From a virus, in the UHGV virus genome UHGV-0351052: a DNA stretch of 64,000 nt. One strand, 5' to 3'. The translations under genes and the position numbers were made by a program. The notes under the pieces are model-generated. The model saw only the letters and a program-made list of their open reading frames with translations. It searched no databases and was not told the DNA's origin. Below are positions 2,823 to 16,333 of the stretch, piece by piece. The stretch's first letter is position 1. Each line of letters starts with the position of its first letter.

Positions 2823-3221
2823 TTATACCCTATTACTCGAAGCCAGTTGCAGTTTTATCTGCTCAATATCATCAGGGTTATCGATGACCGAAAAGCGTAT
2901 TTCTACTATCAGAGTATAATCATCATAAACTGGTATCACATTAACTGATAATTTATCAATACGTGGCTCATAGTTTCTTACTGCGCTTTCAATATTGCGC
3001 TCAACTGTGTCAGCAGTAAGAGGAGTCATATTTTCAAAAAGCTGGTCTGATAAATCACATCCAAATTCAGGGTCAAACGGTCTTGAACCTTTTCTTGTTG
3101 TAATAATTCCCAAAAGACTGTTTTTAATTGACCTTAATCCAAGTGATCTGGAAACATCTTTGTTCCAATCCATTTTCATTTCCGGGTCAATATCAGAATA
3201 AAGCTTATTAATATTTGCCAT
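2823..3221 (-). CDS. 25: baseplate wedge protein gp25
   Basis: 132 aa; T4 gp25 length and sequence. Confidence 0.95.
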   Translation of the reverse strand: MANINKLYSDIDPEMKMDWNKDVSRSLGLRSIKNSLLGIITTRKGSRPFDPEFGCDLSDQLFENMTPLTADTVERNIESAVRNYEPRIDKLSVNVIPVYDDYTLIVEIRFSVIDNPDDIEQIKLQLASSNRV

Positions 3222-3847
3222 TATAGTAACTCAAAGAACTCTTTGAGGCCTCTTATTACATGAGCATGGGTTTTTCCACACTCTGGACATTTAATTGGAA
3301 CAGCCAAATAAACGGTAGGTTTTAAAAGCATATCTTTTATAGCTACAATATCTGACTCTGTGATGATAGAATATAAATCTTCTAGTTCCTTTTCATTTAA
3401 GTCTTCAACTGGAATGCTTTCCCCGTTAGCATGAATCGTTTCTATGCATGATACTATCATGTGGGCTATATTTTTATCATCAAAAATTTTAGGGTATCGG
3501 AATTTAATTTTAATGTCACCCAGTGTATACCAGAGGTCTTCTGGTGCATCTATTTGTGTATGTAATAGATTTATATGGGTTGGTATTTCAGTTCCACAGG
3601 TGCACTTCCAGGAGTTTTCGTGATTAACTTCGCCGAGAGAATGTGCCCATAAATGAATCAGCAGTAGTTCTGATTCTTGGCGGTTTAAATCTTTTGCATT
3701 TGTGCAGTCTTTGATTAGCTTTTTAACAATTACTTCTACAGAACCATTATTTTTGGCAGTAATAAGTTCTAGATATTCTTTAAGCGTGAATGCGCGACAA
3801 TTGATTATTTTAGAACCAACTCTCACATCAAATTTGTATTCATACAT
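3221..3847 (-). CDS. 26: baseplate hub protein gp26
   Basis: 208 aa; synteny 25-26-51-27. Confidence 0.9.
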
Positions 3848-3868
3848 ATTTAGCTCCTTTATTTATCA

Positions 3869-3876
3869 TATTTATA
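3869..3876 (-). promoter_or_regulatory. late promoter TATAAATA (minus strand) for genes 26/25
   Basis: plus-strand TATTTATA 22 nt upstream of gene 26 start; overlaps divergent promoter. Confidence 0.5.
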
Positions 3877-3880
3877 AATA
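3873..3880 (+). promoter_or_regulatory. late promoter TATAAATA for gene 51
   Basis: TATAAATA 18 nt upstream of gene 51 ATG; shares palindrome TATTTATAAATA with minus-strand promoter. Confidence 0.5.
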
Positions 3881-3897
3881 GAATAAAAGGAGCATCT

Positions 3898-4647
3898 ATG
3901 GCAAACATTATTCGTTGTAAATTACCAGATGGTGTTCATCGTTTTAAACCATTTACGGTAGAAGATTATCGAGATTTTTTGTTAGTTCGAAACGATATAG
4001 AACATCGGTCACCACAAGAACAAAAAGAAATAATTACTGATTTAATTGATGATTATTTTGGAGACTATCCGAAGACTTGGCAACCATTTATATTTTTGCA
4101 GGTATTTGTAGGGTCAATAGGTAAAACTAAAGTACCGGTCACATTTGTATGTCCAAAATGTAAAAAAGAAAAGACAGTTCCATTTGAAATATATCAAAAA
4201 GAATTAAAGGAACCTGTTTTTGATGTAGCTAATGTTAAAATTAAATTAAAGTTTCCTTCTGAGTTTTATGAAAATAAAGCAAAGATGATTACTGAAAATA
4301 TTCATTCTGTTCAAGTAGATGAAACTTGGTATGATTGGAAGGAAATTAGTGAATCAAGCCAAATAGAACTTGTTGATGCCATCGAGATAGAAACATTAGA
4401 AAAAATTCTCGATGCAATGAATCCTATTAATTTAACTCTACATATGTCATGCTGTAATAAGTACATTAAAAAATACACTGATATAGTAGACGTGTTTAAG
4501 CTATTAGTTAACCCAGATGAGATATTTACTTTTTATCAAATTAATCACACACTCGTAAAAAGTAATTATAGCTTAAATTCAATAATGAAAATGATTCCTG
4601 CTGAACGTGGATTCGTATTAAAACTGATTGAGAAGGATAAACAATAA
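3898..4647 (+). CDS. 51: baseplate hub assembly protein gp51
   Basis: 249 aa; synteny. Confidence 0.9.
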
Positions 4648-5822
4648 TGAGTATGTTGCAACGCCCCGGATATCCAAATCTCAGCGTTAAATTATTTGAT
4701 AGCTACGACGCTTGGAGTAATAATAGATTTGTTGAATTAGCTGCTACTATTACCACATTAACTATGCGGGATTCTCTTTATGGACGAAATGAAGGAATGC
4801 TGCAGTTTTATGATTCTAAAAACATCCATACAAAAATGGATGGAAATGAAATAATTCAGATTTCTGTAGCTAATGCAAATGATATTAATAATGTTAAAAC
4901 ACGAATTTATGGATGTAAGCATTTTTCCGTGTCAGTAGATTCAAAAGGTGATAACATCATTGCTATTGAATTGGGAACTATTCATTCTATAGAAAATCTT
5001 AAATTTGGTAGACCATTTTTCCCTGATGCAGGTGAATCTATAAAAGAAATGCTTGGTGTCATTTATCAGGATCGCACATTATTAACTCCAGCAATAAATG
5101 CTATAAATGCTTATGTTCCTGATATTCCATGGACTAGCACATTTGAAAACTATTTGTCATATGTAAGAGAAGTTGCTCTAGCTGTAGGAAGCGACAAATT
5201 TGTATTTGTGTGGCAAGACATCATGGGAGTTAACATGATGGACTATGATATGATGATAAATCAAGAACCATATCCAATGATTGTCGGTGAGCCATCTTTA
5301 ATAGGTCAATTCATCCAAGAATTAAAATATCCATTAGCATATGATTTTGTTTGGTTGACTAAATCGAATCCTCACAAACGTGACCCAATGAAAAATGCTA
5401 CTATCTATGCTCATTCATTTTTAGATTCTTCATTGCCAATGATTACTACAGGAAAGGGCGAAAACTCTATTGTAGTGTCAAGGTCAGGTGCTTATTCTGA
5501 AATGACTTATAGGAATGGATATGAAGAAGCTATTCGTCTTCAAACTATGGCACAATATGACGGTTATGCTAAATGTTCTACTGTCGGTAATTTTAACTTG
5601 ACTCCTGGTGTTAAAATTATTTTTAATGATAGTAAAAACCAATTTAAAACAGAATTTTACGTTGATGAAGTTATCCATGAATTATCCAATAATAATTCAG
5701 TAACTCATCTATATATGTTCACTAATGCAACGAAACTGGAAACAATAGACCCAGTTAAGGTTAAAAATGAATTTAAATCTGATACTACCACTGAAGAAAG
5801 TAGTTCTTCCAATAAGCAATAA
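4647..5822 (+). CDS. 27: baseplate hub protein gp27
   Basis: 391 aa; T4 gp27 length. Confidence 0.95.
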
Positions 5823-6300
5823 AGAAGTTTCTATTCCTAAAATGGGTCTTAAACATTATAACATTTTAAAGGATGTTAAAGGTCCTGATGAAAATTTAAA
5901 ACTTCTTATTGATTCTATTTGTCCGAATTTATCACCAGCAGAAGTTGATTTCGTTTCTATTCATTTATTGGAATTTAATGGAAAGATTAAATCTCGTAAA
6001 GAAATAGATGGCTATACTTATGACATTAACGATGTTTATGTATGCCAAAGATTAGAATTTCAATACCAAGGAAATACATTTTATTTTAGACCTCCTGGAA
6101 AATTTGAACAATTTTTAACAGTGAGCGATATGTTATCTAAATGCTTGCTTAAGGTCAACGATGAAGTTAAAGAAATTAATTTTCTTGAGATGCCAGCATT
6201 CGTTTTAAAATGGGCAAATGATATTTTTACAACTTTAGCAATTCCTGGCCCTAATGGTCCAATAACTGGAATTGGCAATATTATTGGATTATTTGAATGA
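5767..6300 (+). CDS. 28: baseplate hub distal protein gp28
   Basis: 177 aa; ATG start overlaps 3' end of gene 27 by 56 nt. Confidence 0.8.
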
Positions 6301-8069
6301 AAAAGCCACAAGAAATGCAAACGATGCGTAGAAAAGTTATTTCAGATAATAAACCAACACAGGAAGCGGCTAAATCCGCTTCCAACACTTTATCTGGACT
6401 TAATGATATATCTACGAAATTGGATGATGCTCAAGCTGCTTCTGAATTAATTGCTCAAACTGTCGAAGAAAAATCGAATGAAATAGTTGGAGCAATTGGT
6501 AACGTAGAAAGCGCAGTGAGTGATACTACTGCCGGTTCTGAGTTAATTGCTGAAACTGTCGAAATTGGCAATAATATTAATAAAGAAATCGGTGAATCAC
6601 TCGGAAGCAAATTAGATAAATTAACGAGTTTATTAGAACAAAAAATTCAGACAGCTGGAATTCAACAAACAGGAACCAGTTTAGCCACAGTTGAAAGCGC
6701 TATTCCTGTTAAAGTCGTTGAGGATGATACTGCTGAATCTGTGGGTCCTTTATTACCGGCTCCCAAAGCAGTTAATAATGATCCTGACGCTGATTTTTTC
6801 CCTACCCCTCAGCCAGTTGAACCCAAACAAGAATCACCAGAAGAAAAACAGAAAAAAGAAGCATTTAACTTAAAATTATCTCAAGCTTTAGATAAATTAA
6901 CAAAGACTGTTGATTTTGGATTTAAGAAATCCATTTCAATTAGTGATAAAATATCAAGCATGCTATTTAAGTACACCGTCAGTGCTGCTATTGAAGCCGC
7001 TAAAATGACTGCAATGATATTGGCTGTTGTTGTTGGAATAGATCTTCTGATGGTTCACTTTAAATATTGGTCAGATAAATTTTCGCAGGCTTGGGATTTG
7101 TTTAATACTGACTTTACTAAATTCTCTAGCGAAACCGGAACATGGGGTCCTTTATTACAGAGCATCTTTAGTTCTATTGATGAAATTAAAAAGTTCTGGG
7201 AAGCAGGAGATTGGGGTGGATTAACAGTAGCTATTGTTGAAGGGCTTGGAAAGGTTCTTTTTAATTTAGGAGAGCTTATTCAATTAGGTATGGCTAAATT
7301 ATCTGCGGCAATTCTTCGAGTTATTCCTGGCATGAAGGATACTGCTGATGAAGTAGAAGGAAGAGCATTAGAAAATTTCCAAAATTCTACTGGAGCATCT
7401 CTCAATAAAGAAGACCAAGAAAAAGTAGCAAATTATCAAGATAAACGAATGAATGACGATCTTGGTCCAATAGCAAAAGGATTAGATAAAATTGCTAATT
7501 GGAAAACCCGTGCATCTAACTGGATTCGTGGTGTTGATAATAAAGAAGCATTGACAACCGATGAAGAACGCGCAGCAGAAGAAGAAAAATTAAAGCAACT
7601 TTCACCAGAAGAAAGAAAAAACGCTTTAATGAAGGCTAATGAAGCTCGTGCTGCGATGATTCGTTTTGAAAAATATGCCGATTCAGCTGATATGAGTAAA
7701 GACTCAACAGTTAAATCAATTGAAGCCGCTCATGAAGACCTTAAAAAACGGATGAATGACCCGGATTTAAATAATTCACCTGCAGTTAAAAAGGAGCTTG
7801 CTTCTAGATTTGCTAAAATTGATGCTACTTATCAAGAGCTTAAGAAAAATCAACCTGAGGCCAAACCTGAAACTTCTGCTAAATCGCCAGAAGCAAAACA
7901 AGTCCAGGTAATAGAAAAGAACAAAGCGCAACAAGCTCCTGTTCAACAAGCATCTCCTTCAATCAATAATACTAATAATGTTATTAAGAAAAATACTGTC
8001 GTTCATAATATGACACCTGTTACGAGTACAACTGCTCCTGGTGTATTTGGCGCGACTGGAGTTAATTAA
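6297..8069 (+). CDS. 29: baseplate hub / tail-length determining protein gp29
   Basis: 590 aa; ATGA overlap with gene 28. Confidence 0.9.
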   Translation: MKKPQEMQTMRRKVISDNKPTQEAAKSASNTLSGLNDISTKLDDAQAASELIAQTVEEKSNEIVGAIGNVESAVSDTTAGSELIAETVEIGNNINKEIGESLGSKLDKLTSLLEQKIQTAGIQQTGTSLATVESAIPVKVVEDDTAESVGPLLPAPKAVNNDPDADFFPTPQPVEPKQESPEEKQKKEAFNLKLSQALDKLTKTVDFGFKKSISISDKISSMLFKYTVSAAIEAAKMTAMILAVVVGIDLLMVHFKYWSDKFSQAWDLFNTDFTKFSSETGTWGPLLQSIFSSIDEIKKFWEAGDWGGLTVAIVEGLGKVLFNLGELIQLGMAKLSAAILRVIPGMKDTADEVEGRALENFQNSTGASLNKEDQEKVANYQDKRMNDDLGPIAKGLDKIANWKTRASNWIRGVDNKEALTTDEERAAEEEKLKQLSPEERKNALMKANEARAAMIRFEKYADSADMSKDSTVKSIEAAHEDLKKRMNDPDLNNSPAVKKELASRFAKIDATYQELKKNQPEAKPETSAKSPEAKQVQVIEKNKAQQAPVQQASPSINNTNNVIKKNTVVHNMTPVTSTTAPGVFGATGVN

Positions 8070-8077
8070 GGAATAAT

Positions 8078-9172
8078 ATGGCAATTGTTAAAGAAATAAC
8101 TGCTGATTTAATTAAAAAGTCTGGCGAGACAATTTCAGCTGGACAGAGTACTAAATCAGAAGTAGGAACTAAAACATACACAGCCCAGTTTCCAACTGGG
8201 CGTGCTAGTGGGAATGACACTACAGGGGACTTCCAGGTAACAGATCTATATAAGAATGGATTATTATTTACTGCATACAATATGTCATCTAGGGATTCTG
8301 GAAGTCTCAGAACGATGAGATCTAACTACTCTTCTTCATCTTCTAGTATTTTACGTACAGCCAGAAACACTATCAGTAATACAGTATCAAAACTGTCAAA
8401 TGGATTAATATCAGATAATAATTCAGGAACAATAAGTAAAGTTCCTGTTGCAAATATTCTTTTACCGAGATCTAAATCCGATGTTGATACATCATCACAT
8501 AGATTTAACGATGTTCAAGATAGTCTTATTACAAAAGGTGGAGGTACTGCTACTGGTGTGTTAAGCAATATGGCTTCAACTGCAGTATTTGGAGCACTGG
8601 AAAGTATAACACAAGGTATAATGGCTGATAATAATGAACAGATTTATACGACAGCCAGAAGTATGTATGGTGGTGCTGAGAATAGAACTAAAGTGTTCAC
8701 TTGGGATTTGACTCCGCGTTCCACGGAAGATTTAATGGCTATTATTAATATCTATCAATATTTTAACTATTTTTCTTATGGTGAAACGGGTAAATCTCAA
8801 TATGCTGCTGAAATAAAAGGATATCTAGATGAGTGGTATCGCTCTACTTTTATTGAGCCATTAACTCCAGAAGATGCAGTTAAAAATAAGACGTTATTTG
8901 AGAAAATGACATCGAGTTTAACTAACGTTCTTGTAGTTTCAAACCCGACAATTTGGATGGTTAAAAACTTTGGCGCAACTTCTAAATTTGACGGAAAAAC
9001 AGAAGTGTTTGGACCGTGTCAAATTCAAAGTATTAGATTTGATAAAACTCCGAATGGTAATTTTAACGGATTAGCTATTGCTCCTAACCTTCCAAGTTCT
9101 TTTACACTCGAGATTACTATGAGAGAGATTATCACGTTAAACCGTGCTTCTTTATATACGGGGACTTTCTAA
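8078..9172 (+). CDS. 48: baseplate tail-tube junction protein gp48
   Basis: 364 aa; synteny. Confidence 0.9.
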   Translation: MAIVKEITADLIKKSGETISAGQSTKSEVGTKTYTAQFPTGRASGNDTTGDFQVTDLYKNGLLFTAYNMSSRDSGSLRTMRSNYSSSSSSILRTARNTISNTVSKLSNGLISDNNSGTISKVPVANILLPRSKSDVDTSSHRFNDVQDSLITKGGGTATGVLSNMASTAVFGALESITQGIMADNNEQIYTTARSMYGGAENRTKVFTWDLTPRSTEDLMAIINIYQYFNYFSYGETGKSQYAAEIKGYLDEWYRSTFIEPLTPEDAVKNKTLFEKMTSSLTNVLVVSNPTIWMVKNFGATSKFDGKTEVFGPCQIQSIRFDKTPNGNFNGLAIAPNLPSSFTLEITMREIITLNRASLYTGTF

Positions 9173-10137
9173 TGTATTCTTTAGAGGAATTTAATAACCA
9201 AGCAATAAACGCAGACTTCCAACGTAATAATATGTTTAGCTGCGTTTTTGCAACAACTCCATCAACTAAAAGCTCTTCGTTGATAAGTTCAATTAGCAAC
9301 TTTTCTTATAATAACTTGGGCCTAAATTCAAATTGGTTAGGATTAACTCAAGGTGATATTAATCAGGGAATTACCACGCTAATTACAGCTGGCACACAAA
9401 AACTGATAAGAAAATCAGGGGTTAGTAAATATCTTATTGGTGCCATGAGTCAACGTACAGTTCAAAGTTTATTAGGCTCATTCACAGTTGGTACATATTT
9501 AATTGACTTCTTTAACATGGCATATAACTCATCTGGATTGATGATATATTCTGTAAAAATGCCAGAGAACAGATTATCCTATGAAACTGACTGGAACTAT
9601 AATTCTCCTAATATTCGTATAACCGGAAGAGAATTAGATCCTTTGGTTATTTCATTTAGAATGGATTCAGAAGCTTGTAACTATCGTGCAATGCAAGACT
9701 GGGTTAACGCTGTTCAAGACCCAGTAACTGGACTGCGTGCTTTGCCACAAGATGTCGAGGCAGATATTCAGGTTAATCTTCATGCTCGTAATGGATTACC
9801 TCATACTGCAGTGATGTTCACCGGATGCATTCCAATGTCAGTGAGCGCTCCTGAGTTATCATATGATGGAGATAACCAAATAACTACGTTTGATGTTACT
9901 TTTGCGTATAGAGTCATGCAGGCTGGAGCAGTTGATAGACAAGCTGCGCTTGAGTGGCTTGAATCTGCTGCTATAAATGGCATTCAAAGCGTTCTCGGAA
10001 ATAGTGGAGGTGTTACTGGATTATCTAATTCGCTTTCACGACTTAGTAGATTAGGTGGAACTGCTGGAAGCATTTCAAACATTAATACTATGACGGGAAT
10101 TGTCAATTCGCAAAGTAAAATATTAGGAGCAATATAA
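9172..10137 (+). CDS. 54: baseplate tail-tube initiator gp54
   Basis: 321 aa; synteny. Confidence 0.9.
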   Translation: MYSLEEFNNQAINADFQRNNMFSCVFATTPSTKSSSLISSISNFSYNNLGLNSNWLGLTQGDINQGITTLITAGTQKLIRKSGVSKYLIGAMSQRTVQSLLGSFTVGTYLIDFFNMAYNSSGLMIYSVKMPENRLSYETDWNYNSPNIRITGRELDPLVISFRMDSEACNYRAMQDWVNAVQDPVTGLRALPQDVEADIQVNLHARNGLPHTAVMFTGCIPMSVSAPELSYDGDNQITTFDVTFAYRVMQAGAVDRQAALEWLESAAINGIQSVLGNSGGVTGLSNSLSRLSRLGGTAGSISNINTMTGIVNSQSKILGAI

Positions 10138-10141
10138 CAAT

Positions 10142-10170
10142 GGGGACCGAAAGGTCCCCATATTTTTATT
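10142..10170 (+). terminator. rho-independent terminator after gene 54
   Basis: GGGGACC-GAAA-GGTCCCC hairpin followed by ATATTTTTATTT. Confidence 0.6.
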
Positions 10171-10456
10171 TGCGGAATGAAATGAAAGCAGAAACTGAAG
10201 CAACTAAACTATCTTCAATATAAACTTCAATTTTTACCGGAGCTTCTGACTCAAATTTACCTGTTACTACACCCTGAAAAATACTTTCAGTCTGTTCTGG
10301 CTTTGAAAAATTTTCAGAAGGAAAAATTCCAAACTTTTTATCTGTTCCGAAAATTTTGATAAATTCATCATAAACTGCTTCATTAAAAGCATTATCAGCA
10401 GGAATAACGCCTTCAACTACAAGTTCTTGACCTAAAAAGCGTAAAGAAGATTTCAT
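10166..10456 (-). CDS. hypothetical protein (96 aa)
   Basis: ORF with GAGGAA SD; driven by duplicated early promoter cassette. Confidence 0.6.
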   Translation of the reverse strand: MKSSLRFLGQELVVEGVIPADNAFNEAVYDEFIKIFGTDKKFGIFPSENFSKPEQTESIFQGVVTGKFESEAPVKIEVYIEDSLVASVSAFISFRK

Positions 10457-10487: not shown

Positions 10488-10517
10488 ACTATAACACAAC
10501 ACGAGGGACTTGTAAAC
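10488..10517 (-). promoter_or_regulatory. sigma70-type early promoter (-35 GTTTACA, 17-bp spacer, -10 TATAGT)
   Basis: motif on minus strand; part of 54-bp cassette identical to 25900-25953. Confidence 0.5.
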
Positions 10518-12574
10518 TACATTTTGAACTTTTTAGACATTCCATTGATGTTAACCAAAGAAGCTAAGATTTGAGAAACTTCATTTTCCTCTTCTTTTGA
10601 TTCTTCTACAAGGAATTGATTAAATCCAGCCATTGGACGAACTTCACCAGTTTCCATTAGATGGTCGCCATCATATACTGATTCTTCTAATTGTTCAGAA
10701 GGAGGAACGATTGTACCTTCGATTAGATACTTGTTATAAGCAGTTTCTTTCATAAAGTACGTACTTACTTTATTAATCTTCAGTAAAATTCCACGCGGTA
10801 GAATAACTTCAGCTTCTGATGGAAATCCTGATAAATGACCTGGAACGATAACTTTGATTCGCTCAGCTCCTTTAATTACCATACCCACGCTAGTTTCAGC
10901 ATCTTCATTAGCATATGTAGAATGACTACCCATATGCATCAAATCTTCTGCATCAACAGAACCTTCTCCTTCGCCAGAAAATACTGCACCGGAATCATCT
11001 AGAGCCATATAGTTTTTACCATGCTCACCGAAGATATTTGGTTTAAGCGATGTGGATACGAAGTTCTTGAAATAGAACATTTTGTTTTCAATGTTATGAC
11101 GCAAAGTTTTAAAGGTAACTTCTTGTCCACGATAAAGCGTAGTTCCTGGAGGAAGAACTGAACCTTTAGCGAATGCAGAATCCAACGTCTCGATGTGCTT
11201 AATGGCACGTTCCATATATTCTTCACGGGTAGAATCTGGTTTACCCAAGAGGAACGAGTTCATTTCAACATATGAATCTGCACAATAATCTTCAATTACA
11301 TCAGACTCAGCCTGAGTCAGTCCTTTTGGAGTTACTTCGGTGCTTGCGTATTCATATGCCTGAGCAGCAGATTCATTAATCAATTTATAAATGCCATTCA
11401 TGACAAATTGAATAATAGCTACCTTTTCGTCTGGTGTGGCTTTAGAACCTTTAACTAAATCATTGATAATTTTCTTAATAACATCAAAGCTATTAGAAAT
11501 ATTAATGTCAGCGAGATCGCTTAAAATTTTATCGGTTTTATAATCAAAGAATTCTTTATTCTTTAAATATTCTTGAGAACCTTGATGTGTTATATCGCTC
11601 TGCAGCCTGATAGACGGATCACGTAAACGCGCATGGGCCAATGCAATATGATTTCGGAAGCTTTCTAGTTCATAATCGTTAGATTTAAAACGAGAGGCAC
11701 TTCTCATACCACCGATAGCTCCTTTGCCGAAGTTTGAACCAATCTGGATAACGCCAGAATTCATTGGTCCTTCTGCTTTATATACCGGAACTTTAGATTC
11801 AAACTCTTGATATTTCTTGGCAGCGAAGCTATCACCCTGAAGTGAAGCATCGACAGTAGAATATTGAGCTTGTGCTGCTAATCGACGACTAATTTTAGTT
11901 TTCTGAATAACCGCTTGGTCAGTACGTTTATCATTTTCTAAAGCAATAGAAGCAGCAACAGCGACAGCTTTAGGAACAGCATTACCTGTTTTAACGTCTA
12001 CATAAACATCACCGACCTTCGATTCAACTTTTGTGAATAACTCAGTTGAAATAGGAGGTACACCTGGAATGTCTTCTAAATTGGCATTTTTACGGTAAAC
12101 CATAATATATGCATACTTTTTATCATAGTCCCAGATTTCCTTTAAAAGAACATAACGACCTGCTCCTTTAGTACGTACTAAACGGTCAGCAATAACTTGC
12201 ATTTGACGAGCAGCTCCATTTGTTTTACTTTTTAGTACGCGGAATAAGCATGCGTCAATTTTATACTGTTTCATTGTTTGAAGAGCAGTATCAAAAACCG
12301 CATTAATGACACCAATTGGATTTCCACCCAAGTTTTTAAGTTTAACTAATGATAGTTTCTCATTAACACCTATCATTACGATATGCATCATTTTATCGCC
12401 TGGCTTAACGTTTTTATTTGTATCACCGCCAGAGGTGTATGTACAAAATCTAAATCCAGGAAGCACGCTTTCTTCACCGGCTTGAATAGCAAAAATTTGA
12501 GGTATTTTATGCTTAGGATTTAAGTTAACAACCGGCGCCGAAGCGCCGTCAAATAATTCTGTAATAAGTTCCAT
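10517..12574 (-). CDS. Alt-like ADP-ribosyltransferase paralog (685 aa)
   Basis: N-terminus MELITELFD and first ~230 aa similar to adjacent Alt; ART motifs R (TTLYRGQ), STS (FVSTSL), ExE (EAEVILPRG); divergent central region. Confidence 0.85.
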   Translation of the reverse strand: MELITELFDGASAPVVNLNPKHKIPQIFAIQAGEESVLPGFRFCTYTSGGDTNKNVKPGDKMMHIVMIGVNEKLSLVKLKNLGGNPIGVINAVFDTALQTMKQYKIDACLFRVLKSKTNGAARQMQVIADRLVRTKGAGRYVLLKEIWDYDKKYAYIMVYRKNANLEDIPGVPPISTELFTKVESKVGDVYVDVKTGNAVPKAVAVAASIALENDKRTDQAVIQKTKISRRLAAQAQYSTVDASLQGDSFAAKKYQEFESKVPVYKAEGPMNSGVIQIGSNFGKGAIGGMRSASRFKSNDYELESFRNHIALAHARLRDPSIRLQSDITHQGSQEYLKNKEFFDYKTDKILSDLADINISNSFDVIKKIINDLVKGSKATPDEKVAIIQFVMNGIYKLINESAAQAYEYASTEVTPKGLTQAESDVIEDYCADSYVEMNSFLLGKPDSTREEYMERAIKHIETLDSAFAKGSVLPPGTTLYRGQEVTFKTLRHNIENKMFYFKNFVSTSLKPNIFGEHGKNYMALDDSGAVFSGEGEGSVDAEDLMHMGSHSTYANEDAETSVGMVIKGAERIKVIVPGHLSGFPSEAEVILPRGILLKINKVSTYFMKETAYNKYLIEGTIVPPSEQLEESVYDGDHLMETGEVRPMAGFNQFLVEESKEEENEVSQILASLVNINGMSKKFKM

Positions 12575-12577
12575 GAT

Positions 12578-14635
12578 TTATCCTTGAACGAACTTGTAAG
12601 GCATGTTTGCAATATCTATGCAAGATGCAATAATTCCAAGAGATGATTCTACTTTTTGTTTAACATTTGATGAAACAAATGATGCAAAATCAACTCTGTC
12701 TTCTATTTCAATATCACCTGTCATTGCAACTACTTCACCGGTTTCCATTAGACGGTCACCGTCATAAATTACTGATTCGGTGAGTTCTTCTGTAGTCATA
12801 ACTTCAGCTTGAATAAGCTTGTTGTTAGTTTTAGCTGTTCCATCATTGTAAGATGCGTCGGTTATTTTATTGACTTTGACCATCAATCCACGCGGCAAAA
12901 TGACTTCCATTTCATTTGAAGGCGCTAAACTTCCACCTGGTAAAACAACGTTGACTTTATCAGCCCCAGTAATAACCCATCCAATTCCAACTAAATTATC
13001 GCTAGAATTAACAAGTCCTTCATCGTTTTTATCGATAGAAATGTTTAGACGCTTTTCGTCTGGTAAAACACCCACAGCTGAATCAGTCATCCAAGTACCA
13101 AAAATGTTTGGATATAATGATGTTGATACAAAATTTCTAAAATAAAAAACTCGATTTTTTACCAATGCTTCATATATTGAAGGTAACATTCGCTGTGAAC
13201 GATATAAAGTAATACCTTTTGGCAGTCGATCACCATTTTTAAAGGCTGAATCTAAATTATCGATGGCTTGTTCTATTTCTGGTGCTGTTAAAATACTTGT
13301 ACGCTCATCTGGATTATATAATCCCAAAAGAGCATTATTCATGTCTACATATCCTGAACCTACGTATTCACGAATTCCGCGTTTTTGTGCCGGTGTGTAT
13401 TTAGATGAATCTTTATTTTCGACTATAGAATGCAATGACCATCCAACGGTAAGAGCATATCCACGTAATTCTCTTCGAATAATCTTTGTTTTTATTGCGT
13501 TCCAAGAATTTTGCACTAACTCATTCGCAGCATCTTGATTTAAATGCGAATGCTTGTTAATATTTCTTTCTAACCAAGCACCTTTATATTTTTCTAAAGT
13601 ATCATCAACTATAGAAGCAATAGTTTCTAAAGTTTTTATTGAAGTAATAGATTCTTTTCGTAATCTTTCTAAAGCTTTATTTTTTATTTCTGCATTAACA
13701 TCAGATTCTTTATCTTCAGGAATTATAGAAGCTTCTCTGAATGCCATTCCAGCTGTAACACTATTAAGAGCATTCTCTAATGCAAATCCTGAAGTAGAAA
13801 TAACAGTTAATTCGTTAGCATCAGAAATTAAAGGCGCGTCAGCGGGTTTATTTAATTCTGCTGCTGAAGCCTCAAATTTTTGAAACATTGGTGTTTCAAA
13901 TCTAGAAGATTCTAACGATTGACTTTGTGCAATTGCTCTACGGGAAATTTTAACTTTAACGATTACAGCTTGGTCAGAACGTTTATCATTTTCTTGCGCA
14001 ATAGATGCTGCAATTGCCTCGTTTTTAGTTACTTGAGCTCCAGTATCTTTATTGATATAAACATCACCGACCTTCGATTCAACCTTAGTAAAGAGCTCGG
14101 TACTAATTTCCGGAACTCCTGGAATGTCTTCTAGTGATACATTTTTGCGATGTATAAGAATATATGCATACTTTTTATCATAATCCCAGAGTTCCTTAAG
14201 AAGGACGTATCTGCCACCTGAACGACTACGGATAAGTCTATCAGCAATAACTTGAATCTGTCGAGCTTGACCAGCGGTTTTAGACTTAAGAATACGGAGC
14301 ATACAGGCATCAATTTTATACTGACGCATTGTTTGCATTGCAACAGTAAAAACTGAATTGATATAATTAATTGGGCTTGGACCGAGACCTTTTAATTTAG
14401 CAATTGAACCTTTAGCAGTTAATGTAAAAGGAACAATATGCATCATTTTATCGCCCATCTTTAAATCACGATTAGTATCACCTCCAGATGTATAGGTACA
14501 TAAACGAAAGCCTGGTTGTTCAATTGCGTCATCAACATGAACTGAAAAAATTTGCGGTATTTTCTTCTTTGGATTTAAGTTTGTAATTGGAAGAGTAGTA
14601 TCTTCGTCAAATAGTTCTGTAATTAGTTCCATCAT
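12578..14635 (-). CDS. alt: Alt ADP-ribosyltransferase (685 aa)
   Basis: matches T4 Alt as recalled; ART motifs R (ITLYRSQ), STS, ExE (EMEVILPRG). Confidence 0.9.
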   Translation of the reverse strand: MMELITELFDEDTTLPITNLNPKKKIPQIFSVHVDDAIEQPGFRLCTYTSGGDTNRDLKMGDKMMHIVPFTLTAKGSIAKLKGLGPSPINYINSVFTVAMQTMRQYKIDACMLRILKSKTAGQARQIQVIADRLIRSRSGGRYVLLKELWDYDKKYAYILIHRKNVSLEDIPGVPEISTELFTKVESKVGDVYINKDTGAQVTKNEAIAASIAQENDKRSDQAVIVKVKISRRAIAQSQSLESSRFETPMFQKFEASAAELNKPADAPLISDANELTVISTSGFALENALNSVTAGMAFREASIIPEDKESDVNAEIKNKALERLRKESITSIKTLETIASIVDDTLEKYKGAWLERNINKHSHLNQDAANELVQNSWNAIKTKIIRRELRGYALTVGWSLHSIVENKDSSKYTPAQKRGIREYVGSGYVDMNNALLGLYNPDERTSILTAPEIEQAIDNLDSAFKNGDRLPKGITLYRSQRMLPSIYEALVKNRVFYFRNFVSTSLYPNIFGTWMTDSAVGVLPDEKRLNISIDKNDEGLVNSSDNLVGIGWVITGADKVNVVLPGGSLAPSNEMEVILPRGLMVKVNKITDASYNDGTAKTNNKLIQAEVMTTEELTESVIYDGDRLMETGEVVAMTGDIEIEDRVDFASFVSSNVKQKVESSLGIIASCIDIANMPYKFVQG

Positions 14636-14655
14636 ATCCTCTCTAGTGTTTATTC

Positions 14656-14663
14656 TATTTATA
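14656..14663 (-). promoter_or_regulatory. late promoter TATAAATA (minus strand) upstream of alt
   Basis: plus-strand TATTTATA 21 nt upstream of alt ATG. Confidence 0.45.
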
Positions 14664-14668
14664 AAATT

Positions 14669-14686
14669 AAAGGCCCGAAGGCCTTT
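14669..14686 (-). terminator. stem-loop AAAGGCC-CGAA-GGCCTTT, putative terminator
   Basis: perfect 7-bp GC-rich stem with GNRA-like loop between upstream small ORF and alt promoter. Confidence 0.4.
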
Positions 14687-14873
14687 AGTAATCTAGTGGT
14701 AAGAGAGTACGATATATTTCAAACTTTGGACCTTTTTCATAGGCATCAAATGTTTCTGTGAATTTATTATAAGCATATGCATCTACAAATTCGAGAATGA
14801 CTTGTGATACAGAAGTAGAAACATCTCCACCTTCTTTTTGAGCAATGACAATTGTTTCTAAGTAAGCTTTCAT
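14685..14873 (-). CDS. hypothetical protein (62 aa)
   Basis: ORF overlapping ligase stop (ATGA). Confidence 0.55.
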   Translation of the reverse strand: MKAYLETIVIAQKEGGDVSTSVSQVILEFVDAYAYNKFTETFDAYEKGPKFEIYRTLLPLDY

Positions 14874-16333
14874 AAACCAGTTACCTCATGAAAATCACCA
14901 AATACATCTTCGAACGTATTAGCTTTAGTTTTATCTTCGCGTAAACGAATCGCAATCGGAAGAAATAATTTAACGTAATCAGTGCGGCCATCAGATTTTA
15001 ACCAACCGTTGCATTCGCACTCTAGAATTTTTCCAATATAATAATTTTGGTTTTCCATAATGCGAGTACGGTCAAGTTCATGCGATTTTACACCGGCTTT
15101 ATCTTTTAAGCCTGAACCAGCATTTACTTTAATTTTTCCACATTCTGATTCAAGAATAAATCCACCCGCTTTAGTAGGGTCTTTGCGGTGAGGATAAATT
15201 CCTACAATTTTTAAATCAACATCAATTACTTCTTTAAATTTATAGAGATTTTTTGAACGAGCATTTTCCCATAATCCATCGATATTTTTGAGAATAATAC
15301 CTTCAAGACCTTGGTCAATATACTTTTTATAAATTACCTTAGCTTCATCTAGGTTATTTACTACCTGGTTTTCAATTAAAATTACTTTATCATATCCTGA
15401 TGTCATTTGTTCTAGTTTAGAAAAACGTACATCATATTTTAAACGAAACGCTGGAAGACCGTATATTTCTACCAACGGGACATAATCCCAGACCTGAAAC
15501 TTCATGCATTGAGCTTCTTTTTCAGAAATGGTTCCCTTTAAAGATTTATTGGCGATTCCATTAGAAGTAGTACGAGATTCCGCTACTTCGGCGAATTCTT
15601 TAGCTTTACTAATTTCAGGATAAGCATCAAAAAGAAAATCTAGGCCTTCTGGTTCCTTTTTAACTTGCTCATGGTATACCAATTCGCCATCAATTAACAC
15701 ACCTTCTGGATGAATCTGGCGGGCTTCAGCAGTCATTTTGATTAATTCTTCCTTAAGAAGATCTAATCCTAGATATTCATTACCAGCTCGTGATAAAAGA
15801 CGAACATCATCTAATTCATCGCCTCGGACTTCAGCAAAACACCGGGCTCCATCTGCTTTTAACTGTGCAAAGGCTGGAAATTTGATATTCTTACTAATGC
15901 CTTTTTCATCATAAGAACTTGCCAGCATTTGAGGTTGTTCAGGAATTAAACCTGGCCAAACTTTGTTTGCAATAGATACTGAAGCACCGCATTCAAGATC
16001 TCGCATCATCACTCGACGCAAAACTTCAACATCATCCTTTTTACCATCAGTGATATATCCAGTTAATTCCTCAATTGCAGCATTTCCAGTCAATTTCCGA
16101 GTAGCTAACGTGAATTCAATGAAGTCAAGCATATCGGTAATAGTCAGCATTCCAAAACTCTGGGTAGCAATACCAGGTTTAGGCCATTTCTTGATATAAT
16201 ACTGCAACCCACGAGAATAAGTTAGACGATATACTCGTTTAAGCAATTCATTATCTTTATTCTTTTCAAGAATTGCTTGCTTCTGCTTAGTTGAACCAAT
16301 AGATGCTATTTCGTTCAGAATTTTAAGAATCAT
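14870..16333 (-). CDS. 30: ATP-dependent DNA ligase
   Basis: 487 aa; adenylation motif KADGAR; matches T4 DNA ligase as recalled. Confidence 0.97.
   Translation of the reverse strand: MILKILNEIASIGSTKQKQAILEKNKDNELLKRVYRLTYSRGLQYYIKKWPKPGIATQSFGMLTITDMLDFIEFTLATRKLTGNAAIEELTGYITDGKKDDVEVLRRVMMRDLECGASVSIANKVWPGLIPEQPQMLASSYDEKGISKNIKFPAFAQLKADGARCFAEVRGDELDDVRLLSRAGNEYLGLDLLKEELIKMTAEARQIHPEGVLIDGELVYHEQVKKEPEGLDFLFDAYPEISKAKEFAEVAESRTTSNGIANKSLKGTISEKEAQCMKFQVWDYVPLVEIYGLPAFRLKYDVRFSKLEQMTSGYDKVILIENQVVNNLDEAKVIYKKYIDQGLEGIILKNIDGLWENARSKNLYKFKEVIDVDLKIVGIYPHRKDPTKAGGFILESECGKIKVNAGSGLKDKAGVKSHELDRTRIMENQNYYIGKILECECNGWLKSDGRTDYVKLFLPIAIRLREDKTKANTFEDVFGDFHEVTGL

Follow-up and report, generated by a model that had tools for sequence, protein, structure and literature searches.

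Tandem Alt-type ADP-ribosyltransferase genes in a Tequatrovirus genome: a conserved second paralog and its probable role as another injected enzyme

We analyzed a 64,000-nucleotide stretch of the virus genome UHGV-0351052 (hereafter the window, numbered from its first letter), whose minus strand carries two adjacent genes for Alt-type ADP-ribosyltransferases (ARTs): A1 (12578..14632, 684 aa), the ortholog of phage T4 alt in its T4-type allele, and A2 (10517..12574, 685 aa), a second Alt paralog. Both proteins retain all catalytic residues of the family, and A2 is a functional gene, since its ratio of nonsynonymous to synonymous substitution rates (dN/dS, omega) is about 0.04 over nine orthologs and some 400 of roughly 500 related records have it in intact form. 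The best explanation of these data is that A2, like Alt, is probably an arginine-specific mono-ART that is made late, packaged, processed and injected, with a substrate range of its own.

The raw open reading frames (ORFs) of the pair span 10517..12574 (minus strand, 685 aa, starting MELITELFDGAS) and 12578..14635 (minus strand, 685 aa, starting MMELITELFDED). An earlier note on this DNA had proposed that they are two tandem Alt-type paralogs with a catalytic triad in each, and both proposals are supported by the alignments and domain searches. The two proteins align over their full length with 42% identity by BLASTP (E = 5e-158), and both exceed the curated cut-off of 23.4 bits for the Pfam family PF03496 (ADPrib_exo_Tox), with 117.9 bits for A1 and 71.5 bits for A2. 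The PHROG profile phrog_802 (Alt-like RNA polymerase ADP-ribosyltransferase) is matched end to end (profile positions 2-674 of 674), with 876.7 bits over residues 1-683 of A1 and 852.3 bits over residues 1-685 of A2. A1 is identical to T4 Alt at 659 of 682 residues (96.6%). No NCBIfam model matched either protein, and no match for A2 was found in a sequence search of the PDB.

The catalytic motif of A1, the upstream paralog, is intact and consists of R478 (13199-13201), S503-T-S505 (13118-13126) and E574-M-E576 (12905-12913); that of A2 consists of R482 (11129-11131), S507-T-S509 (11048-11056) and E587-A-E589 (10808-10816), all on the minus strand. The R, S-T-S and E-x-E residues are invariant across a 19-sequence family alignment. 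E-x-E is the motif of arginine-specific ARTs of the R-S-E class, and we assume that the glutamate published as E577 in T4 Alt lies within it (E574/E576 in the 682-aa T4 numbering). Replacement of this E577 by alanine abolishes ADP-ribosylation (PMC11404850).

Comparison of A1 and A2 along their length reveals a conserved frame around a very different center. Residues 1-238 are 68-70% identical (16-24 identical positions per 30-residue block), which bears out the conserved N-terminal third described in the earlier note; identity drops to just 3-7 positions per block from about residue 239 to 430, recovers to 11-16 per block between about 430 and 520, falls in the insert after S-T-S and rises again at E-x-E. 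The central divergence had been placed at roughly residues 230-470, which is about right, with a C-terminal limit that is slightly generous. It had also been understated: the two middles (about 175-190 residues) have no detectable similarity in BLASTP (E = 4.5), and an hhalign comparison gives a probability of 1.6%, obtained with shallow profiles (effective number of sequences, Neff, 1.8) and fitting extreme divergence and replacement alike. The first nine residues, MELITELFD, are identical in the two proteins, as had been noted, and their codons differ at two synonymous sites. Recent gene conversion was considered as the source of the identical N-termini and rejected, in view of these two synonymous differences in nine codons and of N-domains that are about 70% rather than about 100% identical.

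The A1 ORF opens with two consecutive start codons, ATGATG (14630-14635). The second, at 14632, is almost certainly the one used, giving a protein of 684 aa that begins MELITELFD instead of MMELITELFD from 14635, because the T4 annotation agrees with it, the spacing to the predicted Shine-Dalgarno sequence (GAGAGG, 14638..14643, minus strand) fits 14632 better than 14635, and phages Ec_O157kw and BECP11 have AAC in place of the upstream ATG. The length of 685 aa previously given for both genes is therefore correct for A2 and one residue too long for A1.

Four parts can be distinguished in A2, all on the minus strand. Residues 1-238 (11861..12574) comprise the putative propeptide MELITE and the conserved alpha/beta N-domain, residues 239-430 (11285..11860) form the variable, all-helical middle cassette, residues 431-631 (10682..11284) form the ART catalytic domain, delimited by Pfam, the invariant columns and Foldseek, and residues 632-685 (10520..10681) are a predicted disordered C-terminal propeptide, assigned by model confidence and by analogy to the processing of T4 Alt. 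The full AlphaFold 2 (AF2) model has a mean predicted local distance difference test (pLDDT) score of 75.7 and places the alpha/beta N-domain at about residues 11-195, an all-helical region at about 200-470 and the ART core at about 475-625; beginning at residue 629, pLDDT stays under 50. Its ART core is matched by Foldseek to Vis, C3bot, Certhrax, CDTa and VIP2 with a probability of 1.0 and a target template modeling (TM) score of about 0.63. The N-domain modeled alone reached a pLDDT of 85 and had no informative neighbor in the PDB; homologs have a precomputed PF26846 hit, and the Alt N-domain is presumed here to be a module for association with the head core. Directly behind residue 631 lies a conserved SxYDGDxLMETGE block, and E6, E631, Y634, D635, G636, D637, E641, G643 and E644 (A2 numbering) are invariant in the family alignment. 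A1 and A2 share one build, namely a short putative propeptide ending at ITE-6 followed by the alpha/beta N-domain, a lineage-specific helical middle of about 190 residues, the R-S-E ART domain, and a tail behind an L-x-E site.

A2 has evolved under strong purifying selection. In nine A2 orthologs, whose A2-specific DNA is 93-98% identical to that of the window, the 685-codon ORF is always intact and the proteins are 97.8-99.7% identical; dN averages 0.008 and dS 0.20, from which the omega of about 0.04 follows. By region, omega is 0.011 in the N-domain, 0.084 in the middle, 0.033 in the ART domain and 0.010 in the C-terminal tail, so that all parts remain below 0.09.

The gene is also widespread and old. 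The part of A2 that is missing from T4 was found at full coverage and at least 93% identity in 402 phage records, including T2, RB6, RB33, RB68 and the BASEL phages; T6 also carries A2, 384 records span the full 4.8-kb block of both genes, and the A2 protein cluster contains 772 member sequences. The middle cassette of A2 is 94-100% identical among Tequatrovirus copies. It is 44-46% identical to that of the protein annotated as altb in the Dhakavirus phages JS98, JS10 and QL01 (44 records), and these AltB-type proteins have only 17-24% identity with the middle of A1. JS98 has its alta-altb pair in the same slot as A1-A2 and an A2-like middle in the second gene, which indicates that the alt pair predates the split between Tequatrovirus and Dhakavirus. 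The two-gene alt operon is the normal and probably the ancestral state of T-even phages.

From this point of view, T4 is a derived case. Its ORFs alt.-1/alt.-2 (positions 3066-3451 of the compared T4 locus, L001) correspond to the 5' 350 nucleotides (nts) of A2 at more than 95% DNA identity. According to the BLASTN break points and the sequences, two lesions wrecked A2 in T4, namely a -1 frameshift where an A-run near codon 54 lost one nt and the deletion of 1,699 bp between 9-nt direct repeats; in the window, the two copies of this repeat (ACTTTTTAG, read on the plus strand) lie at 12227..12235 and, near the 3' end of A2, at 10528..10536. In 91 of 500 related records (about 18%), the sequence runs unbroken across the T4-type deletion junction, and independent partial deletions seem to be present in KAW1E185 and NIC06P2. 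The GenBank record of T4 describes alt.-1/alt.-2 as "an old duplication of the first part of gene alt". The full-length copies in relatives show, however, that these ORFs are what a deletion left of a complete gene and no partial duplication.

A different arrangement was observed in Yersinia phage PST (positions 3181-5241 of its locus, L010), which has a single chimeric alt gene with about 300 A1-type nts (98% identity) at its start and A2 sequence (97-100%) in the rest. Such a chimera is the product expected of unequal recombination between the conserved 5' parts of tandem paralogs. Two metagenomic proteins, P0005 and P0006, look like chimeras of the PST kind.

A1 itself is dimorphic among close relatives. 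A T4-type allele (682-684 aa) occurs in the window, pSs-1 and T4, and a T2-type allele (697 aa) in T2, RB68, wV7, Shfl2 and others; positions 12578-14632 of the window were compared with 5242-7335 of loci L003-L009. The two alleles are 73% identical, the same in residues 1-238 and the last 90 or so residues, and divergent in the middle and part of the ART domain, which is the same block that separates A1 from A2. A2 is nearly invariant across the phages in which A1 is dimorphic.

The signals around the pair point to an apparent single late operon; the earlier note had already pointed out a late promoter just upstream of A1 and the 3-nt distance of A2. On the minus strand, a match to the late-promoter consensus, TATAAATA, lies at 14656..14663, 31 nts before the A1 start codon, and holds the same position in T4, T2, RB68, pSs-1, PST and others. 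Behind alt.1 and ahead of this promoter, a G+C-rich terminator-like hairpin (AAAGGCCTTCGGGCCTTT) with a T-run (14668..14687, minus strand) would shield the alt operon from upstream early transcription. The block of hairpin and late promoter is identical base for base in ten Tequatrovirus loci, and the hairpin is also present in JS98. The A1 stop codon TAA (12578-12580) is separated by 3 nts from the A2 ATG (12572-12574), and a candidate Shine-Dalgarno sequence for A2, AAGGA (12581..12585, minus strand), is located within the last A1 codons, 6 nts before that ATG. The 3-nt spacing also occurs in seven other Tequatrovirus loci and in T4 (alt/alt.-1), and the alta/altb gap of JS98 is 0 nts. Along the coding strand, the first terminator-like site that the terminator scan detected is the hairpin behind alt.-3. 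In this arrangement, one late promoter located behind the terminator hairpin would drive A1 and then A2, with A2 translationally coupled to A1.

An internal late promoter for A2 was also considered and rejected for this window, in which neither A1 nor A2 contains a second TATAAATA. The T2-type A1 (loci L003 and L006) has an internal TATAAATA at coding-strand nt 1374, with no counterpart in the T4-type allele of the window; it could be a chance occurrence or an internal late promoter feeding A2.

What is known of T4 Alt suggests how the two products may act. T4 Alt is a prohead-core protein present in about 40 copies (PMC9958956), is cut by the gp21 protease at ITE-6 and LTE-619 (PMC5694885), is injected alongside the DNA of the phage (PMC9958956; PMC9026906), and targets Arg265 on one of the RNA polymerase alpha subunits, along with other host proteins, for ADP-ribosylation (PMC2988021). 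Motifs of the gp21 type occur at aligned positions in both proteins of the window, at ITE-6 (14615-14617) and LTE-619 (12776-12778) in A1 and at ITE-6 (12557-12559) and LEE-631 (10682-10684, aligned with LTE-619 of T4 Alt) in A2, all on the minus strand. The packaging of both A1 and A2, which the earlier note had put forward, is plausible and is supported by the same first nine residues with ITE-6, the retained N-domain, the aligned L-x-E site and the disordered tail. Different host targets, also suggested there, are plausible too: the proposal is reasonable because the middles are unrelated and each under strong purifying selection and because the insert after S-T-S is divergent. We counted in its favor that the A1 alleles vary in the same middle/ART block. 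The mechanism that we favor would run as follows. Both proteins would be made late and built into the prohead core through their common N-terminal part, where gp21 would trim both ends of each; they would be injected with the DNA and, with NAD+ as donor, would go on to mono-ADP-ribosylate host proteins at arginines, and their unrelated middle cassettes and divergent inserts after S-T-S would give them different substrate ranges.

Several points weigh against this mechanism. T4 and the 91 records that lack A2 are fully viable, so any A2 function is accessory, and PST, which has both genes fused into one chimera, shows that one Alt can suffice. For the late promoter and the terminators there are only matches to a consensus, from which we infer promoter use, and TATAAATA occurs 12 times in the window compared to 8.9 times expected by chance. 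Our literature searches on virion proteomics, expression and enzymology of A2 in any phage turned up annotation-level remarks only, and one paper each on fPS phages, injected proteins and T-series stocks contains nothing on a second Alt. On the favored reading, A2 is beneficial in nature and dispensable in the laboratory, the latter because T4 and about 18% of sequenced relatives hold only a deleted remnant.

With regard to the targets themselves, a proposal that we offer tentatively, as a possibility that could easily prove wrong, is that A2 (AltB) is injected as another enzyme and has host targets of its own, for example a defense, translation or stress-response protein untouched by Alt, and that the middle cassette is the target-recognition module. 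It is unlikely that A2 is a redundant or back-up Alt with the same main target, Arg265 of the RNA polymerase alpha subunit, that raises the injected dose or buffers against loss. The two proteins do share the catalytic motif, including the arginine-type E-x-E, as well as architecture and length, T4 Alt and ModA both already modify this same arginine (PMC2988021), and loss of A2 (T4) or gene fusion (PST) is tolerated. However, mere dosage copies would be expected to homogenize or decay, whereas the A1 and A2 lineages have remained separate since before the split between Tequatrovirus and Dhakavirus, with unrelated middles and purifying selection on that of A2 (omega 0.084).

Somewhat less likely again is an active A2 that is not packaged, or only negligibly so, and acts late inside the producing cell. 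Such an enzyme would have no obvious reason to conserve protease sites, yet the N-terminal propeptide, the N-domain (omega 0.011) and, at the C-terminal end, the L-x-E with its conserved flank are all retained in A2, and the equivalent features of T4 Alt are processed inside the prohead. This alternative draws its support from two circumstances, namely that direct evidence of A2 in virions was not found in the literature and that the capsid-targeting determinant of Alt is unmapped.

We consider it improbable that A2 is mainly a structural part of the head core, or that it acts on a non-protein substrate (ADP-ribosylation of RNA or DNA, or RNAylation like that of ModB), instead of being a classical protein-arginine ART. 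Besides being an enzyme, Alt has been described as a core protein (PMC11404850), the related ModB attaches RNA chains, and sequence does not fix the substrate class. The invariant catalytic residues and an omega of 0.033 in the ART domain argue against a purely structural role, and T4 heads assemble normally without A2. As for non-protein substrates, E-x-E is, as mentioned above, the motif of arginine-specific enzymes. Finally, a decaying, functionless duplicate is very improbable and was rejected as a reading of A2: T4 and about 18% of its relatives have the gene in broken form, and independent partial deletions seem to occur in KAW1E185 and NIC06P2, but its 685-codon ORF is intact in nine of nine orthologs at a dS of about 0.2 and an omega of about 0.04, and about 400 records keep it.

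The surroundings of the pair are those of a T-even phage. When positions 1-25000 of the window were compared with a phage collection, the closest phage record was 96.4% identical over 25 kb, and since none matched better over that distance, the window is a further mosaic member of Tequatrovirus; among phage records matching the two-gene block, SHFML-11 has 96.7% identity to the window. The two minus-strand ORFs, 3 nts apart, lie between DNA ligase (gene 30)/alt.1 and alt.-3/gene 54, a position syntenic with T4, T2, RB68 and JS98, and the gene order is the same in T4, T2, RB68 and pSs-1. It comprises gp48 (8078-9172) and gp54 (9172-10137) on the plus strand, followed on the minus strand by alt.-3 (10166..10456), the alt pair, alt.1 (14685-14873) and the DNA ligase gp30 (14870-16333). 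A terminator-like bidirectional hairpin (10140..10161), found by the terminator scan and corresponding to an annotated terminator in phage G50, occupies the gap between alt.-3 and gene 54.

The downstream neighbor alt.-3 stands outside the ART pair and encodes a DUF5498 protein of 96 aa (PF17602, 213 bits, in agreement with the T4 annotation). It seems to have its own promoter: a sigma-70-like sequence (TTTACA, 17 nts, TATAGT with TG), identified by consensus scan only, lies directly behind the A2 stop codon at 10488..10516 on the minus strand. In T4, C-terminal extensions of Alt.-3 allow the phage to escape the CmdTAC defense system (PMC11618068).

The earlier note left it uncertain whether the second copy had been described before, and it has been. 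Annotations of the gene exist for hundreds of genomes; it is called alt.-2 in RB14, RB32, RB51 and RB68 and "Alt-like RNA polymerase ADP-ribosyltransferase (x2)" in RefSeq, and its syntenic counterpart in phage JS98 (2007) bears the name altb. Alt paralogs in RB49, 44RR and T4 were reported by Nolan et al. in 2006 (PMC1524935), and a 2026 paper describes the same pair in 6phi13 and SHFML-11 with 43.29% identity and proposes functional divergence (PMC13600099). Thus, the gene pair is real but already known, and the overall significance of this case is modest, the pair being the normal T-even state, annotated and in print. It matters nevertheless that "alteration" has been learned about almost entirely from T4, a phage without the second enzyme. 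If A2 has its own targets, T4, the model of the field, would be a natural altB-null mutant, and some of the known contrasts in host takeover or defense sensitivity that set T4 apart from T2/T6 would trace to altB. More generally, a swappable helical middle sits in the Alt family within a constant frame of N-domain, ART core and processed ends, with at least three middle types among close relatives, and the family would therefore be a tidy system for studying target choice by injected ARTs.

Among known systems, T4 Alt (gpAlt, NP_049811), a head-packaged NAD+:protein-arginine mono-ADP-ribosyltransferase, is the ortholog of A1 at the 96.6% identity given above. A2 resembles it in architecture, the first nine residues, residues 1-238 (about 70% identity), the R/STS/ExE residues, both gp21-type sites, and the operon and map position, but differs in its overall identity of 42%, its unrelated helical middle of about 190 residues and its other insert after S-T-S. 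AltB of JS98/JS10 (altb, Dhakavirus) and alt.-2/RB32ORF194c of the RB phages are the same gene as A2; the Dhakavirus form occupies the same slot downstream of alta and is about 46% identical to A2 in the middle cassette. The A2 of the window is one more allele of this gene, with 99.7% protein identity to the copy in Shigella phage pSs-1. T4 ModA and ModB belong, like the Alt pair, to the R-S-E clade of ARTs, come from the same phage group and modify host proteins, but they are small (about 200 aa), early-expressed and unpackaged, and have neither the N-domain nor the middle of Alt. C3bot, Vis, Certhrax, CDTa, VIP2 and iota share with A2 the catalytic fold and the R-S-E motif (Foldseek probability 1.0, TM about 0.6, 13-20% identity), whereas these C3-like and binary toxins are bacterial exotoxins with other delivery domains and are unrelated to A2 outside the ART core.

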